A DNA stretch of 63,999 bases, filler included, from an uncultured bacterium (GTDB taxonomy: Bacteria; DAOPZR01), in the NCBI GenBank assembly GCA_964637655.1. It is 17 parts of 17 records of this genome, joined end to end, with 100 filler letters (N's around TTAATTAATTAA, not from the genome) between each part and the next. Parts side by side here need not be neighbours in the genome. Positions count along the whole stretch, not along the records: positions 53,384 to 56,923 come from CAZWUZ010000343.1; 16 more parts are not named here. The stretch is one strand, 5' to 3'. The notes beneath the pieces were generated by a model, which did not search any database, was not told the origin of the DNA, and saw only the letters and a program-made list of their open reading frames with translations. A program made the translations under genes and the position numbers. Below, piece after piece: positions 44,812 through 56,923 of this stretch (positions are counted from its first letter, which is position 1; each line of letters starts with the position of its first letter).

Positions 44812-45934
44812 ATGAAACTGGGCTGGCGGTTCGGGCTGATCGCCCTGGTGCTGGGCGTGGCGGTCTACTACTGGGTGGTCAACGGGGTAACCCTCGGGCT
44901 TGACCTCAAGGGGGGCACCTACCTGTCGCTCGAAGTCGACCTCGAGCAGCTGCGCCTGCTGTCGCCGGGCGCCAACGAGGATGACGCGGTCAACCGCGCG
45001 CTGGAGATCATCCGCGCGCGCGTCGACGAGTTCGGCGTGGCGGAGCCGCTCATCGCGCGCGAGGGGGCGAACCGCATCATCGTGCAGCTCCCCGGCATGC
45101 GCAATGTCGAGACCGCCAAGCAGCTCATCCGCGACGCGGCCACGCTCGAGTTCCGGCTGGTCAGCGAGGATATCCAGCCGCGCGCCGACGGCACCGTGCC
45201 GGCCGGCTACGAGGTGCTGTACATGCAGCGCCCGACGCCTGACGGCCGCGGCTACGAGCGGGGCGAGGCGGTGGTGGTGCGCAGCACGCCGGAACTGACC
45301 GGCGAGCACCTGACCCGCGCGCGGGCGCGGCGCGACGACCAGAGTTTGGGCGGCGGGCGCTGGGCCATCGACATCGAGTTCGACGAGGAGGGCGCGGAAA
45401 AGTTCCGCGATGTCACCACCGCCAACATCCGCCGCCGGCTGGCCATCGTGCTCGACGGCAAGGTCATGTCGGCCCCGGTCATCAACGAACCGATCACCCA
45501 GGGGCGGGCGCAGATCACCGGCGGCTTCACGTCGGATGACGCCCACCGCCTGCGCATCATCCTCGAGTCGGGCTCGCTCCCCGCGCCGGTCAAGATCGTC
45601 GAGGAGCGCACCATCGGCCCGACGCTCGGCGCCGACTCGATCCGCCGCGGCGTCTATGCCGCCGCGGTCGGCCTGGCGATCATCGCCCTCTTCATGATCA
45701 TCTACTACCGCTTCGGCGGGTTCGTTGCCGACCTGGCGGTGCTGCTCAACCTGGTCATCCTGCTGGGCGGCATGGCGATGCTCGGCGGCACGCTGACCCT
45801 GCCGGGGATCGCCGGCATCATCCTCACCATCGGCATGGCGGTGGACGCCAACGTGCTGATCTTCGAGCGCATGCGCGAGGAGTTGCGCGCGAACAAGACG
45901 GTGCGGGCCGCGGTCGAGGCGGGCTACGCCAAGG
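44812..45934 (+). CDS. secD: Protein translocase subunit SecD, N-terminal part
   Basis: LGLDLKGG, RVDEFGVAEP, IIVQLPG, GSLPAP, IGPTLG, LTLPGIAG..IGMAVDANVLIFER. Confidence 0.95.
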
Positions 45935-50525: not shown

Positions 50526-50626
50526 CGCAGCCCGTTTGACACAGATACAATAATCATATACCATCGCCTTACTAAATTGACTACGGGGGAGGGGAGGGCA
50601 GGTGTCTGCCTTCCCCTTTGTGCTTG

Positions 50627-53254
50627 ATGCTCAAGACGCTGGTAAAACAGATAGGGCGTGTGCCCCTTGTGCAGGTTGCGGGCGAATTGACCGCAGAACG
50701 CACGCGTGAGTTCTCCCAGCTCCTCGACCAGGTGCTGGGCGATGGCAGTGATGCCTTCATCGTCAACCTCGAACATGTCCCGGCCATCGACCAGCCCGCG
50801 CTGCAACTGCTCGGCGAGGCGGTGGCGACGGCCCGCGCCCATGGCGGCCGGGTCACCCTGCTGCGCCCCCATCCGGCCATCGAAAAAGAGGTTTCCCGCC
50901 TGGTACTCGACCATCGCGTCGAGGTCTTCTATCAGGAGGAAGCGGCGGTCAGCGACATGGAGACGGCGCTGCGGACGCGTCTGCTGCGTGCGTTCCGCGG
51001 CAAGAGCATGTTCAAGCGGGGCGAACGTCTGCCTGCCGATGAACCGCCGGCGGATCCGGCTGCACCGCCCGCACCGCCGGCGGATATCCGCTCGCTGCTG
51101 GCGGGGATCGACCCCTGTCCGCGCTGCGGGGCGATGCTCGAAGTCGACGGGGCCTGCCCGCACTGCGGCGCGGGGGTGACCGGCAAACCGCCCGCACCGC
51201 CGCGCCGCGAAGCGCCGGCAGCCAGGCCGGCGGCGCTGTTGCCGGTGCCCGTACCGGTCCCGGCGGACGACCGGCGGTGGCAGGACCTGCGCCGGGCGCG
51301 GCGGGTGGAACAGGCGGCACTCCGTGAAACCAGGACGCTGCTGCGCACGCTGCAGCGGCAACTGCAGCGGACGCGCGACGAGGCGGCTGGTGCGGCGACG
51401 CGACAGCAGCGGGCGGAGCGGCAGGCCCGGGACCGGCGTCAGCGGCAGCGCGCGGTGCAGGTGCTGCGGCAGCGCGAAGCACAGCTCGCGGCACAGACGC
51501 GCGCGCTGCGGACCGAGGCGGACGAACTCGCGGCGAAGTGCGCGCGCGGCCGCGAGGAACTGCGCCGGCTGCTCGAAGAGGAATTGCGGCAGGAGCATGA
51601 GCGGCTGCAGGCGGTGCAGGGTGAACTGCGGGGAGCGACCGGCAGCCGTGACGCGGCGCAGACGGAACTGGCGGCGCTGACCGCGGCGGTGACCGCGTCG
51701 CGTGCGGAGCAGCGCACGCTCGAGGCGGCGCTCACGGCGCTGCGCGCGGAGGAGGAGCGGCTGCGCGGCATCGATGCCAGCTGCGCGGCGCGTGAACAGG
51801 AGGCGGCGCGCCTGCTGGCACGCCGGCAGCGGCTGGGGCGGGAGGTCGCGGCGGCGGAACAGCAGCTGGTCGCGCTGCGCGAAGAGCGCGCCGGGATACA
51901 GCGTGACCGGGACGAGGTGGCGGCCGCGGCCGCGGACCTGGCACGCACCCTGGCGGATGAGCAGGCGGCCCTGGCCGCCCTGCATGCGGAACAGCACGAA
52001 CTGCGCGCCGCCTGCGCGTCCCTGGAACAGGAGACCGCGGCCGCCCGCGCCACGCTGGCGTCAGCGGCGGTCCAGGCGGCGGAGAGCGGGCGGCTGGCGG
52101 CGCGGATCGCGGAGCAGGAGGAGGAACTGCGCCGGCTGGAACACCGCCGGGCGCAGCTGCAGCGCGAACACGACCGCCTGCAGGCGCAACTGGGTGACCT
52201 GCGCGGCGACTGCCGGCGGCTCAGTTCCGAGGTGGCTTCGGCCCTGACCCAGATGCAGGATGCCCGGCGGCAGGAGCAGGAGGCGGCGCGGGCGGCGGCG
52301 GCGCTGCGCCAGGCCGAGGAACAGACGCGCACCCGCGTGCTGGCCCTGCAGCGGCAGCATGAGGAACTGGAAGTTGCGCAGCACGCGCTGACGGGCCAGG
52401 CGGCGCAGCTGACCCAGCAGCTGGCGGAACATGAGCGTGAGCGGGCGTTGTTGCAGACGCGGCAGCAGGAACTGACGGAGGCATGCGCCGCGCGCGGTGC
52501 GGAGCGTGACGCGCTGGCCGCTGACTGCCGGCGGTGGCGGGCGGAGGCGGAAACGCAGCAGGCGGCAGCAGCAACCGCGGCCGCGGCTGCGACTGAGCGG
52601 CAGCAGGAACTCGCGGCACTGACGCGGGCGCGGACTGAGGCGGAACGCGCGCTGAGCGCGCTGACCCGCGAACAGGAGGAGTGTGCGGCGGCGGTGGCGG
52701 CGCTGGGTGACCAGCATGCCGCGCTGCTGCAGGCCGCGGCGCAGCGGCTGGCCGAGGAACAGGCGGCGACGGCGGCGCGGGAGGAAGCGGCGCAGGCGCG
52801 GATGCAGCAGGAGGCGGCGCGGCGCGAAACAGCGAAGGCGCGGGCGGCGCTGACCCGGTGTGAACGGACGCTGGCTGCCCGGCGGGCCGAGCAGGAAGAA
52901 GCGGTGGCGGCAGTGGCGGCGGCGACGGCCGCGCTGACGGCCGTGCGGGCGGAAACGGAGCAGCAGGCGGCGGCGGGTCGCGCGGCCGCGGATGAACTGC
53001 GGGCGTGCACGGAGCGCCTGCAGGCGACGGCGGTGCAACAGGCGGCGGCGACGGCCGCGCTGCTGGCAGACGAGGCGGCGCAGCGGGAGCTGGCTGCGGC
53101 CGCGGCGGCACTGACGGAACGGCGCACGACCCTGCAGACGGAATTGGCGGCGCTGCAGGCACAGCAGGAGGCGGTGCGGCAGCAGACCGCGGCCGCGGCC
53201 GCGCGCCTGGCGGAACTGACCGCACAGCAGCAGGCGGCGGTGCAGCAGCTGTGA
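50627..53254 (+). CDS. STAS domain + zinc ribbon + long coiled-coil protein (3' end uncertain)
   Basis: STAS-like QVAGEL..IVNLEHVPAID; CPRC..CPHC; more than 600 aa of Ala/Glu/Gln/Arg heptads. Confidence 0.65.
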   Translation: MLKTLVKQIGRVPLVQVAGELTAERTREFSQLLDQVLGDGSDAFIVNLEHVPAIDQPALQLLGEAVATARAHGGRVTLLRPHPAIEKEVSRLVLDHRVEVFYQEEAAVSDMETALRTRLLRAFRGKSMFKRGERLPADEPPADPAAPPAPPADIRSLLAGIDPCPRCGAMLEVDGACPHCGAGVTGKPPAPPRREAPAARPAALLPVPVPVPADDRRWQDLRRARRVEQAALRETRTLLRTLQRQLQRTRDEAAGAATRQQRAERQARDRRQRQRAVQVLRQREAQLAAQTRALRTEADELAAKCARGREELRRLLEEELRQEHERLQAVQGELRGATGSRDAAQTELAALTAAVTASRAEQRTLEAALTALRAEEERLRGIDASCAAREQEAARLLARRQRLGREVAAAEQQLVALREERAGIQRDRDEVAAAAADLARTLADEQAALAALHAEQHELRAACASLEQETAAARATLASAAVQAAESGRLAARIAEQEEELRRLEHRRAQLQREHDRLQAQLGDLRGDCRRLSSEVASALTQMQDARRQEQEAARAAAALRQAEEQTRTRVLALQRQHEELEVAQHALTGQAAQLTQQLAEHERERALLQTRQQELTEACAARGAERDALAADCRRWRAEAETQQAAAATAAAAATERQQELAALTRARTEAERALSALTREQEECAAAVAALGDQHAALLQAAAQRLAEEQAATAAREEAAQARMQQEAARRETAKARAALTRCERTLAARRAEQEEAVAAVAAATAALTAVRAETEQQAAAGRAAADELRACTERLQATAVQQAAATAALLADEAAQRELAAAAAALTERRTTLQTELAALQAQQEAVRQQTAAAAARLAELTAQQQAAVQQL

Positions 53255-53383
53255 TAGATGTGAAAAACGGCGAAGTGCTGGCCNNNNNNNNNNNNNNNNN
53301 NNNNNNNNNNNNNNNNNNNNNNNNNNNTTAATTAATTAANNNNNNNNNNNNNNNNNNNNNNNNNNNNNNNNNNNNNNNNNNNN

Positions 53384-53547
53384 TCGCCGCAATCATCCTC
53401 TACCCGTTCGGCACCGGCCCCATCAAGGGTTTTGCCGTCACGCTGTCGTGGGGCATCGCGGCCTCGATGTTCACCGCGATCTTCGCCACGCGCGCGCTCT
53501 ATGAACTCATCCTGCGGAACCCCAATGTCCGCTCGCTGTCGGTGTAG
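53384..53547 (+). CDS. secD: SecD C-terminal fragment
   Basis: AAIILYPFGTGPIKGFAVTL..SMFTAIFATR. Confidence 0.9.
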
Positions 53548-53559
53548 GAGAAGACGACC

Positions 53560-55137
53560 ATGAAGAATCCGCTTTACGGCTGCAACGTTGATTTTGTCGG
53601 GAAACGCGGCATCGCCGTGATGCTCAGCGCCCTGCTTATCGTCGCCAGTGTCAGCATTATCTTCTGGCGCGGCGGGCTCAATTACGCCATCGACTTCGTC
53701 GGCGGCACGCGCATCATCTTCAGCTTCGCGCAGCCGGTGACCGTTACCGAGGTCGAGACGGTACGCGCGACCCTCGCGGAGATGGGGCTGCAGGGACAGG
53801 TGCAGCAGTACCAGGAACGCGGCATCACCATCCAGGCCAAGGGCTCGGAGTATACCGACCGCATCCACCAGGCGCTGGTGCAGGCGAAAGCCGCGGCGGG
53901 CGGGAAGTTCGCCACGGAGCAGCAGGTGCGCGACGCGCTGGCGCCGTTCGCCCAGCTCGGGGTGGCGGACATCATGCTGCGCGATTTCGGCATCGTCGCG
54001 GACACCGCGGCGCGCCGGCTCGACCTCAACGCGGTGGCTGACGACAATCTCAAGTCGATGATCGAGAAGATGCTCGGCGAGCAGATCGCGGCGCGTGTGC
54101 AGGCGGCAGTCGGGGAGAAACTCGGCCTGGCCACGGATACCGCGGCGATCGGGGCGATTGCCCTCAATACGCTGCATGACAGCATCGCCATCCGCGCGGA
54201 ACTGGAACGCGGCGCCGTCACGCTGCTGGCTGACGCGCTGCAGGCGAAGCAGGGCGGCTACCGCACCTGGGCTGATGTCGACGCGGTGCTGGAACCCCTT
54301 GGCCTGAAGAGCGACCTGGTGAGCAGCGCGGCGCTCCTCACCAATCCCGGCATCGACGATGCCATCCGCCTCAACCTCAATACCGCCAGCCGTGACGAGC
54401 TCTCGCGGGTACTGACCGGGGCCCTGGCACAGGGCGCGCCGGCGGCGGAACTGGCCAACGGGGCCGCGGCGGTCGCCGCGGTGCGCGCACAGCATGACAT
54501 CCTGCCGTCCCTCGAGCCGGTACTGGCCGCCCCCGGGCTGACCCCGCTGGTGCGCGCGGTGGTCACCCGCTTCGGCAGCGCGGTTCCCTTTGTCATCGAC
54601 AGCGTCGAGATGGTCGGCCCGCGGGTCGGGCGCGACCTGCGCGACAAGGCGATGCAGGCCGTGGTTTACTGTATCATTGCCATGCTCGTCTACATCGGGT
54701 TCCGCTTCCAGTTCAAGTACGGGGTCGGGGCGGTAGCGGCGGTGGTGCACGATACCGTCATCACCATCGGCATCCTCGCGTTCTTCAACCGTGAGTTCGA
54801 CATGACGGTCATTGCCGCGCTGATGACCCTGGTCGGGTTCTCGCTCAACGACACGGTGGTCATTTTCGACCGCATCCGCGAGAAGTTGCGCCTGACGGGG
54901 AGCCGCGACTGGGCGGGCACGATCAACGCCGCAGTCAACGAGACGCTCAGCCGCACGGTCATCACCTCGCTGACCGTGCTCATCGCCTCGGTGGCGCTGC
55001 TGGTCTTCGGCAGTTCCGTGACCTTCGATTTCGCCCTGGTCATGACCATCGGCGTCTTCGTCGGCACCTACTCGTCCATCTTCATCGCCGCGCCCATCCT
55101 CATCGAGTGGCACAACTACTTCGAACGCGTCAGGTAA
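53560..55137 (+). CDS. secF: Protein translocase subunit SecF with a large periplasmic insertion
   Basis: GLNYAIDFVGGT; VGPRVG; HD; AALMTLVGFSLNDTVVIFDRIRE; TLSRTVITS; GTYSSIFIA. Confidence 0.92.
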   Translation: MKNPLYGCNVDFVGKRGIAVMLSALLIVASVSIIFWRGGLNYAIDFVGGTRIIFSFAQPVTVTEVETVRATLAEMGLQGQVQQYQERGITIQAKGSEYTDRIHQALVQAKAAAGGKFATEQQVRDALAPFAQLGVADIMLRDFGIVADTAARRLDLNAVADDNLKSMIEKMLGEQIAARVQAAVGEKLGLATDTAAIGAIALNTLHDSIAIRAELERGAVTLLADALQAKQGGYRTWADVDAVLEPLGLKSDLVSSAALLTNPGIDDAIRLNLNTASRDELSRVLTGALAQGAPAAELANGAAAVAAVRAQHDILPSLEPVLAAPGLTPLVRAVVTRFGSAVPFVIDSVEMVGPRVGRDLRDKAMQAVVYCIIAMLVYIGFRFQFKYGVGAVAAVVHDTVITIGILAFFNREFDMTVIAALMTLVGFSLNDTVVIFDRIREKLRLTGSRDWAGTINAAVNETLSRTVITSLTVLIASVALLVFGSSVTFDFALVMTIGVFVGTYSSIFIAAPILIEWHNYFERVR

Positions 55138-55152
55138 GTCTCGCCATGCACG

Positions 55153-55190
55153 GCGCCGCGGGGACTGTTCCCCGCGGCGCTTTTTTGTTT
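55153..55190 (+). terminator. Intrinsic terminator after secF
   Basis: GCGCCGCGGGGA-ctgt-TCCCCGCGGCGC-TTTTTTGTTT. Confidence 0.85.
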
Positions 55191-55253
55191 ATGGTGGACC
55201 GTGCGCCAGGTCAGTTCCCGCCTGTCCCATCTGACTTCCAGCACCGCACGCAG

Positions 55254-55541
55254 GTCATTCCCGAATTGTGCTATCGGGAATCCAGCACACACACTGCGCA
55301 CGTCAACGGCTTCACCGCAGAGCACACAGAGCACGCAGAGAACGGCAACGTCCTTGTACCGGGGCCGGTGGAAAGAGGCGGCACGGAGCAGCATACAGGC
55401 GGCACGTGGAGCATACTGGACTCCCGATTGAACAATTCGGGAGTGACAGCCGGCAGCAGATGGCAGCATAACCGGATGGTATGCCGGCACGGCAGCGGCA
55501 CTTCGAGCGCGATCCGTGTGCTCCGTGTGCTCCGTGGTGAA
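55254..55541. repeat. Interleaved inverted pairs of two palindromic repeat families
   Basis: GTCATTCCCGA..TCGGGAATCCA (55254-55284) with an inverted copy at 55417-55447; TTCACCGCAGAGCACACAGAG (55311-55341) with an inverted copy at 55514-55541. Confidence 0.75.
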
Positions 55542-55574
55542 GGTCGTAAGGATGCTGCGGCCTGCGGCCGGCGT

Positions 55575-55768
55575 TCCGGGAGCAGGACGCAGTGATGACT
55601 GCCGCCGACCGTCTCCGCGAACTGACCGCCGCACGCCCGGAGCGCGAACGCGCCCTGCACCCGGTGACGGAGCGAGGCCGGTGGTCCGGGAGCAGGGCGC
55701 AGCGATGACTGCCGCCGACCGTCTTCGCGAACTGACCGCCGCGCGCCCGGAGCGCGAACGCGCCCTGC
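55575..55768 (+). repeat. 110-bp-period direct duplication of the relA RBS and first ~21 codons
   Basis: TCCGGGAGCAGG.CGCAG.GATGACTGCCGCCGACCGTCT.CGCGAACTGACCGCCGC.CGCCCGGAGCGCGAACGCGCCCTGC occurs twice. Confidence 0.9.
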
Positions 55769-56923
55769 TCGACGCGGCGCTGCGCTTCGCCACCGAACGC
55801 CATCGCGGGCAGCAGCGCCTGTCGGGCGAGGACTACATCGCCCATCCCGTGGCGGTGGCGCTCACGCTGGCGGAACTCAACCTCGACACCCCGACCCTGG
55901 CGGCGGCGCTGCTGCATGACGTGCGCGAGGACTGTGGGGTGACCGACGAGGAACTGCGCGCCGCGTTCGGCGACGAGATCGCCTTCCTCGTCGCGGGGGT
56001 GAGCAAGCTCAGCACGCTCGACACGGGGGACCGCGTGGCGGTGATGGCGGACGCGCTGCGGCGCATGCTGCTCGCCATGGGGCGCGATATCCGGGTCATG
56101 CTGGTCAAGCTGGCGGACCGCCAGCACAACCTCGACACCATCGACGCGCTCCCCGCGGCGCGGCGTGAGCGGCTGGCGCGCGAAACGCTCGAACTCTACG
56201 CCCCGCTGGCCCACCGCCTCGGCATGGAGCGCGTGCGCCTGGCACTGCAGGAGGGGAGTTTCCGCATCCTCTACCCGGAGGCCCATGCCGCCCTGCTGGC
56301 GCAGGTGGCGGAACGCGAGCCGCTGCGCCAGGTGCGCGTGCTGGCGCTCATCGCGCGCACCGACGAACTGCTGCGCGCGCACGGCATCGTTGCGCAGCTG
56401 GCGGGACGCCCGAAGAGTTTGTTCTCGATTTACGAGAAGATGCAGCGGGAGCGCATCCCCTTCGACCGGGTGTTCGACCTGCTGGGCCTGCGCGTCGTCG
56501 TCGACACTCCGGCCGACTGCTACGCCGCGCTCGGCTACCTGCACCAGCAGTGGCCGCCGCTCCCTAACCGTTTCAAGGACTACCTCGCGCGCCCCAAGTC
56601 GAACGGCTACCAGTCGCTGCACACCGTGGTCACTACCGACGACGGCGCCATCGCCGAGTTCCAGATCCGCACGGCGGCGATGCACCGCCACGCGCTGGAA
56701 GGGGTCGCCGCGCACTGGCTGTACAAGGAAGGCGGGGAGGGGAAGTTCGATGCCATGCAGCAGCTCGGCTGGTACAAGCGGCTGCTCGACTCGCTCGGTG
56801 CGGAACAGGATGCCGGGCAGGTGGTGCGCGCGGTCAAGAACGCGGTGGCGCAGTCCGAGGTGCTGGTCGTCACTCCCGGCGGCGACGTCAAGGAACTGCC
56901 CGAGGGGAGCACACCCGTGGATT
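55705..56923 (+). CDS. Bifunctional RelA/SpoT (p)ppGpp synthetase/hydrolase (3' truncated)
   Basis: HRGQQRLSGEDYIAHP, ALLHDV, VKLADR.HN, YAPLAHRLG, GRPKS, FKDY..PKSNGYQSLH, EFQIRT, GVAAHW.YK. Confidence 0.95.

Follow-up and report, generated by a model that had tools for sequence, protein, structure and literature searches.

In current models of the SecDF motor, the periplasmic region P4 of SecF is a small static base, and both movement and substrate contact are left to the P1 head of SecD. One review names P1 and P4 as the periplasmic parts of the complex and describes P1 as much larger than P4, the P1 head of SecD as swinging, and P4 and the P1 base as forming one sheet (PMC5974789). Here we describe a SecF with an enlarged P4, encoded in a window (the whole stretch of DNA that was analysed, 63,999 nucleotides with filler included) from the genome bin of an uncultured bacterium (GCA_964637655.1, hereafter G000). 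This SecF has the same 6-helix membrane domain as the solved SecDFs of Thermus thermophilus and Deinococcus radiodurans (3aqp, 5xan, 5yhf) and the SecF of Escherichia coli (5mg3 chain F), and it shares with them a GG motif, a secD gene immediately before secF and a P4 core composed of strands and helices. Its P4, however, reaches ~310 residues and rivals P1 in size, with an extra 248 residues that are without counterpart in the solved SecDFs. These residues are linked by fold and by profile to helix-hairpin-helix (HhH) domains, and are best called a degenerate descendant of a ComEA/Tex-type HHH_3 domain that lies outside HHH_3 by the Pfam threshold.

Outside SecDF, the insert is similar to ComEA (8dss, 2duy) in its fold (Z 6.7 and 5.6), in the pattern LNLNTA..EL, helix, G.F....L, hairpin, and in its place outside the cytoplasm. 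ComEA is described as a DNA receptor, either free or anchored in the membrane, whose hairpins are of the G-I-G form and which needs a conserved Lys for transformation (PMC9747964; PMC3879209), whereas the insert is embedded in SecF, is acidic, and has neither G-I-G hairpins nor the conserved Lys. A comparable likeness is seen with GspK (3ci0 chain K) and XcpX (5vtm chain X), which have a periplasmic HhH-like domain (Z 6.3 and 6.0); unlike these, the insert is not part of a pilin and has no secretion-system neighbours, but sits in a SecF encoded between secD and a relA-like gene. To our knowledge, the HhH-like domain of GspK and XcpX is not known to bind DNA. Other SecFs, of the types found in genomes G037 and G074, have in common with the present one the host protein, the loop, the insertion sites (inside P4 helix 2, and between helix 2 and strand 4) and the ancestry of the insert, and the G037 insert is also acidic. 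These types carry a single unit of 68-75 amino acids (aa) that passes or nearly passes the Pfam family HHH_3 (36.7 and 23.7 bits), whereas the present SecF uses both sites, holds three units and is far more diverged (12.7 bits). Our literature search on SecF and SecDF found no paper describing an HhH insert. The novelty lies in the long form with its three modules, in the occupation of both insertion sites and in a first module that is probably permuted.

The 525-aa protein is the true, working SecF of the cell. It scores 279.1 bits against the NCBIfam SecF model TIGR00966 (cut-off 160) in two stretches, with no family model above threshold in the region between them, and it matches Pfam Sec_GG (PF07549) at aa 39-60 (24 bits, cut-off 20.3) and SecD_SecF_C (PF02355) at aa 345-519 (203 bits). 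The whole-protein AlphaFold2 model matches SecDF structures in Foldseek (E 2.9e-10 for 5xan, range to 6e-8), the membrane-domain fold and the P4 strand/helix order are of the SecF type, and the gene is paired with the secD directly upstream. A search of the G000 bin (3.99 Mb, 485 contigs, 90.6% complete) gave two matches, one of them this single SecF and the other SecD; a second, normal SecF paralogue doing the real work was considered and rejected, as none was found in the bin. The original prediction, made from the DNA alone, had remarked on the unusual length of this SecF, and this is borne out by the unfused SecF frames of 40 other genomes, which are mostly 294-377 aa. Its features in the window are as follows (TM, transmembrane helix).

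53560..55137, + strand: secF, 525 codons plus stop, from translation of the open reading frame (ORF).
53605..53844, + strand: TM1 (aa 16-36) and P4 core (strand 1, helix 1, strand 2 and strand 3, aa 49-95), from the AlphaFold2 model and Sec_GG.
53845..54588, + strand: the whole P4 insert, aa 96-343, ~248 residues, between strand 3 (RGITIQAKG) and strand 4 (FVIDSVEMVGP), predicted to be mostly helical.
53863..54129, + strand: module 1/2, aa 102-190, an HhH pair in apparently permuted order, threaded into P4 helix 2, from hhalign against the G037-type insert.
54154..54345, + strand: module 3, aa 199-262, degenerate (HhH)2-like, canonical order IALNTL ... KQGGYRTWADVDAV ... PLGLK, from hhalign, with a predicted local distance difference test (pLDDT) of ~90.
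54364..54585, + strand: module 4, aa 269-342, degenerate (HhH)2-like, canonical order LNLNTASRDEL ... AVAAVRAQHDILPSLEPVL ... PGLTP.
54589..55134, + strand: P4 strand 4 and TM2-TM6, aa 344-525, from Pfam SecD_SecF_C and the model helices.

The insert thus lies close to where it had been expected (53850-54600), and all six motifs quoted for it are present, spread over aa 112-327: AAGGKFATEQQV at aa 112-123, LDLNAVADDNL at 154-164, IALNTL at 200-205, KQGGYRTWADV at 230-240, LNLNTASRDEL at 271-281 and AVAAVRAQHDILPSLEPVLAAPGL at 304-327. In the AlphaFold2 model the rest of P4 consists of strand 1 (aa 49-56), helix 1 (62-74), strand 2 (79-84), strand 3 (88-94) and strand 4 (344-352), after which TM2 begins. 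Module 1/2 runs in the order helix, GGKF, HhH, linker, LDLN, HhH, helix, and module 4 has ~10 extra residues at its first hairpin. Two-residue strand bridges are modelled at both ends of every module, and in ComEA-type units such bridges join the N-terminal end to the C-terminal end. The arrangement proposed for modules 3 and 4 is a tandem pair inserted between P4 helix 2 and strand 4.

Direct sequence evidence for an HhH origin is weak in this SecF, its best HHH_3 match lying on LNLNTASRDEL, and the strongest evidence comes through the shorter inserts of other lineages. The SecF of G037 (P0008, 369 aa), from a genome of another phylum that is unrelated to the source genome, was matched over query residues 8-189 in the genome search, and its 68-70-aa insert exceeds the Pfam cut-off of 27 bits for HHH_3 (36.7 bits, E 4.5e-9, over profile positions 19-62). 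In an alignment of 13 insert-bearing and 4 insert-free SecFs this insert forms a clean gap inside P4 helix 2, and the domain pair PF12836+PF02355 appears in precomputed annotations of this short form (P0008 and P0009). Compared by hhalign with an alignment of 12 HHH_3 domains from G000, the G037-type insert matches profile positions 21-65 (probability 97.5%, P 5e-12), and a second, weak match (P 0.0067) puts the VNLN...L that follows on positions 4-19. Relative to the profile, then, the halves of the unit have changed places, and P4 helix 2, split in two, supplies its long HhH helices; from these two separate matches we infer that the topology of module 1/2 may be a circular permutation. The long insert, taken as an alignment of eight sequences, is colinear with the G037-type insert over 94 columns (probability 87%, P 4e-6 with the P4 flanks included); with the inserted columns only, P is 5.7e-4 and the score 22.7, while none of 40 column shuffles scored above 13.5. 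The colinear region is the first ~95 residues of the long insert, at the same site.

The second insertion site, from helix 2 to strand 4, is common to modules 3 and 4 and to the insert of the G074 SecF. The latter has the canonical order and falls below the Pfam cut-off for HHH_3 (23.7 bits), while in hhalign it matches HHH_3 with a probability of 93.5% (P 2.4e-7). Between module 4 and this insert 54 columns can be aligned (P 0.0025), among them the extra segment that both have at the first hairpin; module 4 also matches HHH_3 itself with P 4.5e-4 to 5.1e-4 (score 22.6, shuffle maximum 15.4); for module 3 the corresponding P is 6.3e-4. When cut out and compared with each other, modules 3 and 4 align over 56 columns (P 1.2e-4). 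At E <= 10, HHH_3 is matched by 2 of 8 insert homologues (best E 0.041). The T2SSK family (PF03934) of GspK is sub-threshold in relatives (15.4 bits in L015, 19.1 bits in G037, cut-off 24.2) and gave no Pfam match in the SecF insert at E <= 10.

The fold evidence points in the same direction. The insert model has a mean pLDDT of 79, rising to ~90 over aa 200-345, which covers modules 3-4. When it was compared with 48,161 chains by VIA-align, five of the best six rows were HhH domains (Z 5.6-7.0, root-mean-square deviation 2.6-3.4, 62-73 aligned residues); for residues 110-259 of the insert model, a range in the second half of the insert to which modules 3 and 4 belong, these were Tex 496-564 (Z 7.0), ComEA 8dss (6.7), GspK (6.3), XcpX (6.0) and the ComEA-related 2duy (5.6). 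Lower rows included the C-terminal domain of KIF22, the N-terminal domain of TEFM and chains which we take to be Spt6, PsbU and Pol mu. It should be noted that a Z below 8 (here <=7) is often reached by chance for helical models, and the weight is therefore placed on the sameness of the matches and not on their scores. The claim of ComEA/GspK-like HhH repeats in the original prediction is largely supported as regards ancestry and fold, through VIA-align, the G037 bridge and weak in-register profiles, but fails as regards membership of the family, HHH_3 reaching 12.7 bits where 27 are required.

Homologues with the same insert, which the original prediction had suggested looking for, exist. With the insert alone as query, 1.84 billion representative proteins yielded one true relative, P0004 (53% identity); the other match, P0005, was set aside as a spurious repeat adhesin. 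A word-index search with the insert returned 2 proteins and a profile search 4, which added P0003 (73%), P0006 (the homologue of the sister genus, G001) and P0007, the last from a genome (G039) that shares only the rank of domain with the source genome. A homologous insert of 238-244 aa occurs in all four genera of G039's family, so that the long form is known from two small uncultured families (2/2 and 4/4 genomes) and two metagenome proteins. As the same architecture is found in P0003, P0004, P0006/G001 and four genera of the second family, the insert is not an assembly artefact; an assembly chimera was likewise rejected, the architecture being common to four independent assemblies. When the insert columns are left out, the SecF tree is compatible with a single clade of the eight long-form proteins (support of 74 in the Shimodaira-Hasegawa-like approximate likelihood ratio test, SH-aLRT, by a quick method). 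At least two further lineages have short HhH forms (the G037 and G074 types). The identity of the insert is close to that of the N-terminal part and P4 core (73% vs 67% with P0003; 52% vs 54% with P0004), module 1/2 is the best conserved part (83% with P0003 and 59% with P0004), and the length and order of the insert are kept between both families at 15-31% identity per module.

Taking this together, we favour, with moderate confidence, a reading in which the (HhH)2-derived three-module array is a structural or protein-contact periplasmic head on SecF and not a DNA receptor. Under this reading, the small periplasmic P4 of a working SecF would have been enlarged by ~248 residues making up three (HhH)2-type modules. 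Module 1/2 would be threaded into P4 helix 2 in permuted form and would be common to the shorter SecF inserts of another phylum, and all modules would have descended from a ComEA/Tex-type HHH_3 domain while losing the features that hold DNA. The array would then most likely act as a second head in the periplasm, rigid and passive, on the side of the proton-driven motor that SecF provides. Its three rigid HhH pairs, leaving from P4 helix 2 and the pre-strand-4 loop, would stand beside the SecD P1 head, and its surface would face the mobile P1 head, emerging substrates or an envelope partner. The idea that HhH modules serve SecDF as a scaffold, one of two put forward in the original prediction, is in this way the one we prefer, the role itself being a proposal. 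A P4 as large as P1, made from reused DNA-binding folds and conserved in two uncultured lineages, implies that SecF, too, is able to bear an elaborate module in the periplasm. It also offers a clear case in which an HhH pair loses its DNA-binding marks after a move into a new host protein, possibly with circular permutation, and aa 96-343 provide a concrete construct for studying the function of such heads.

Several observations weigh against the preferred reading of an HhH-derived head. The SecF itself stays below the Pfam gathering score for HHH_3 (PF12836; 12.7 bits vs 27, E 0.14, aa 270-290), and a scan of G000 with this family at E <= 0.01 found 16 places (15 above the cut-off), none of them in secF. 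Modules 3 and 4 match the HHH_3 profile only weakly (P ~5e-4 each), and neither hhalign nor self-BLAST of the whole insert against itself detected an internal repeat. On the structural side, besides the modest Z scores, the 62-73 aligned residues are scattered over a range of 146 residues and the superposed helices are not identifiable, Foldseek with the insert model gave no match at E <= 0.001, and the structure models were built on alignments of only five sequences. The first 108 residues of the insert model found no HhH fold match in VIA-align, which would be expected if this half is, as proposed, permuted. Additionally, some true HHH_3 domains of G000 are acidic too.

One rival reading, which we consider unlikely, sees the insert as baggage that the protein tolerates: insertions would be accepted freely in P4 helix 2 and the pre-strand-4 loop, and the array would do nothing of its own beyond folding away. 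P4 does seem to be a general hot spot for insertions. Among 301 genomes scanned, 12 gave a continuous match, and of the 11 other than G037 the SecFs of 9 were fetched (G240 and G307 were left out as close kin of fetched ones); among these nine long SecFs only that of G074 has an HhH insert, and 8 of the 9 have unrelated ~80-aa expansions at the same place in P4. Nor is the short insert a fixture in G037's phylum, where among 31 genomes 22 have a continuous match across the insert, 4 have abutting pairs of matches that skip it and 5 have fragments or no SecF match, and where two genomes of the same genus differ; on the tree its pattern takes 4 changes, several gains or losses, which speaks against strict need. 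The full-length insert, on the other hand, is kept across the two families despite their low identity per module, it evolves no faster than the P4 core, with module 1/2 more conserved than the core, and it is predicted to fold with high confidence. Whatever its role, the short HhH inserts and the unrelated expansions at the same site mark P4 helix 2 and the pre-strand-4 loop as an evolutionary docking site for accessory domains. The eight SecFs with expansions that are not HhH (L048 and L050-L056, from G148, G081, G139, G295, G154, G246, G105 and G133) are 376-393 aa long, and several of their ~80-residue expansions look like an extra strand-helix-strand unit; the present insert is unlike them and is not an ordinary expanded P4, the outcome that the original prediction had named as fatal to it. 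As to the genomes of the same genus, G071 has an HhH-insert SecF and also a second SecD/SecF pair without the insert, while the closest SecF of G072 has no insert, yet is sister to that of G071 on the tree (support 99).

It is similarly improbable, in our view, that the insert is some other or new helical fold, its HhH-like motifs and Z of 6-7 being the result of convergence or chance in an alanine-rich helical sequence. This would fit with the failure of the SecF insert to reach any curated threshold, with VIA-align scores that lie within the chance range for helical models, and with the outcome of further searches, Foldseek and the ESM Atlas having returned nothing for the insert and sequence and profile searches of the Protein Data Bank only unrelated weak matches. 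A chance resemblance would not, however, be expected to produce best fold rows that are all of the same domain kind with no mix, nor hhalign scores well above those of the column-shuffle controls. The inserts of G037 and G074 provide an independent link to HhH at the same two sites, and the strand bridges at the module ends resemble those of ComEA-type units.

A further possibility, which we rate as very unlikely, is that the three-module array is a working ligand-binding platform that grips DNA, another periplasmic polymer or a dedicated partner protein. If this were true, P4 would be a second active head, and SecDF would have a job beyond pulling preproteins.

As regards DNA in particular, the consensus HhH hairpin is given as G-h-G, a conserved Lys in the first HhH of ComEA as required (K164 in Bacillus subtilis, K63 in Vibrio cholerae), and the contacts of HhH to DNA as largely made by backbone amides, in one account of ComEA (PMC9747964). 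The six hairpins of the insert (QLGVA, MLGEQ, ERGAV, PLGLK, AQGAP and APGLT) have one Gly each and 0/6 are of the G-h-G form, and in the second family the Gly is gone at most hairpin places. Places corresponding to the ComEA Lys hold Q, N or A in the hhalign alignments, and module 4 has no Lys at all, yet is mildly basic with an isoelectric point (pI) of 9.4. The insert as a whole is acidic (pI 5.3), as are 9/9 inserts (eight long forms and G037) with pI 4.7-5.8. In both families alike, the columns that never vary hold G, L, A, N, P and F, with no polar residue other than N named among them, a pattern to be expected of a fold core and not of a binding site. G000 has an outer membrane (BamA was found) and encodes a classical ComEA adjoining a ComEC that has one in-frame TGA; another ComEC adjoins two exported HHH_3 repeat proteins, one of them a 3-repeat lipoprotein and the other anchored in the membrane and holding 4-5 repeats. 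As the genome has its own ComEA and ComEC genes, DNA uptake has separate parts in G000. The genome is rich in exported HHH_3 repeat proteins, and the genes concerned lie outside the window on contigs C71 (6578-10022 and 10940-11920), C389 (a 4-repeat protein) and C278.

Overall, DNA binding by the SecF insert is probably absent, a conclusion drawn from sequence arguments only, and this counts against the suggestion in the original prediction that SecDF is coupled to DNA binding. The reading in which the array has kept an ability to bind nucleic acid, or some other periplasmic polyanion, so that SecDF holds, ratchets or is tethered to DNA, is the least credible of those weighed: it can call on the descent of the modules from a ComEA/Tex-type domain, the wide use of exported HHH_3 repeats in G000 (15 places above cut-off, some adjoining ComEC), the basic module 4 and backbone contacts that make the loss of side chains not decisive, but it has against it the acidity of the insert in all eight long forms and the G037 short form, the missing G-h-G hairpins and Lys, the want of an invariant polar residue across the families, the dedicated ComEA/ComEC genes, and a secF that has no DNA-uptake neighbours.

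The window joins 17 contigs (C327-C350) of the one bin, ordered by size, with runs of N around 'ttaattaattaa' between them, for example at 53284-53383; gene neighbourhood across these linkers is therefore meaningless. The contig carrying secF, C343, occupies positions 53384-56923, and the secD gene is divided between this contig and C339.

44812..45934, + strand: N-terminal part of secD, 374 codons covering TM1, the P1 base and head and TM2-4 up to the point where contig C339 ends, from translation and contig mapping.
53386..53547, + strand: C-terminal end of secD, the last 53 codons plus stop, at the start of contig C343, with the frame read directly.

Judged against the continuous frame of P0006, the gap in secD between the two contigs is ~14 codons, and secF starts 12 bases downstream of the SecD stop on C343. 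In P0006 itself, SecD and SecF are in one continuous frame (...NPNVRTLSVGGKELMRLY...) with no stop between them; either the sister genus truly has a fused SecDF, or the sequence contains an error. On the 3' side, secF is followed by a 560-base spacer and then by a RelA/SpoT-like gene. Within the spacer, 55240-55460 holds copies of a dispersed repeat of ~32-45 nucleotides (nt) with 74 matches in the bin on many contigs, and two 32-nt arms (55254-55285 and 55416-55447), 130 nt apart, are 88% complementary; a scan of the contig against Rfam gave no match. The start region of the RelA/SpoT-like gene, ATG included, is present twice, as a 93-nt direct repeat (55566-55658 and 55676-55768; 94% identity at a spacing of 110) that may be a real tandem duplication or an assembly artefact. 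Upstream of the linker, contig C342 has an 878-aa ORF (50618-53254, + strand) that is mostly rich in Ala, Gln, Glu and Arg and coiled coil-like, and which, standing before the linker, is not a neighbour of secF; its region has a guanine-cytosine content of 75-78%, and long ORFs are open in several other frames.

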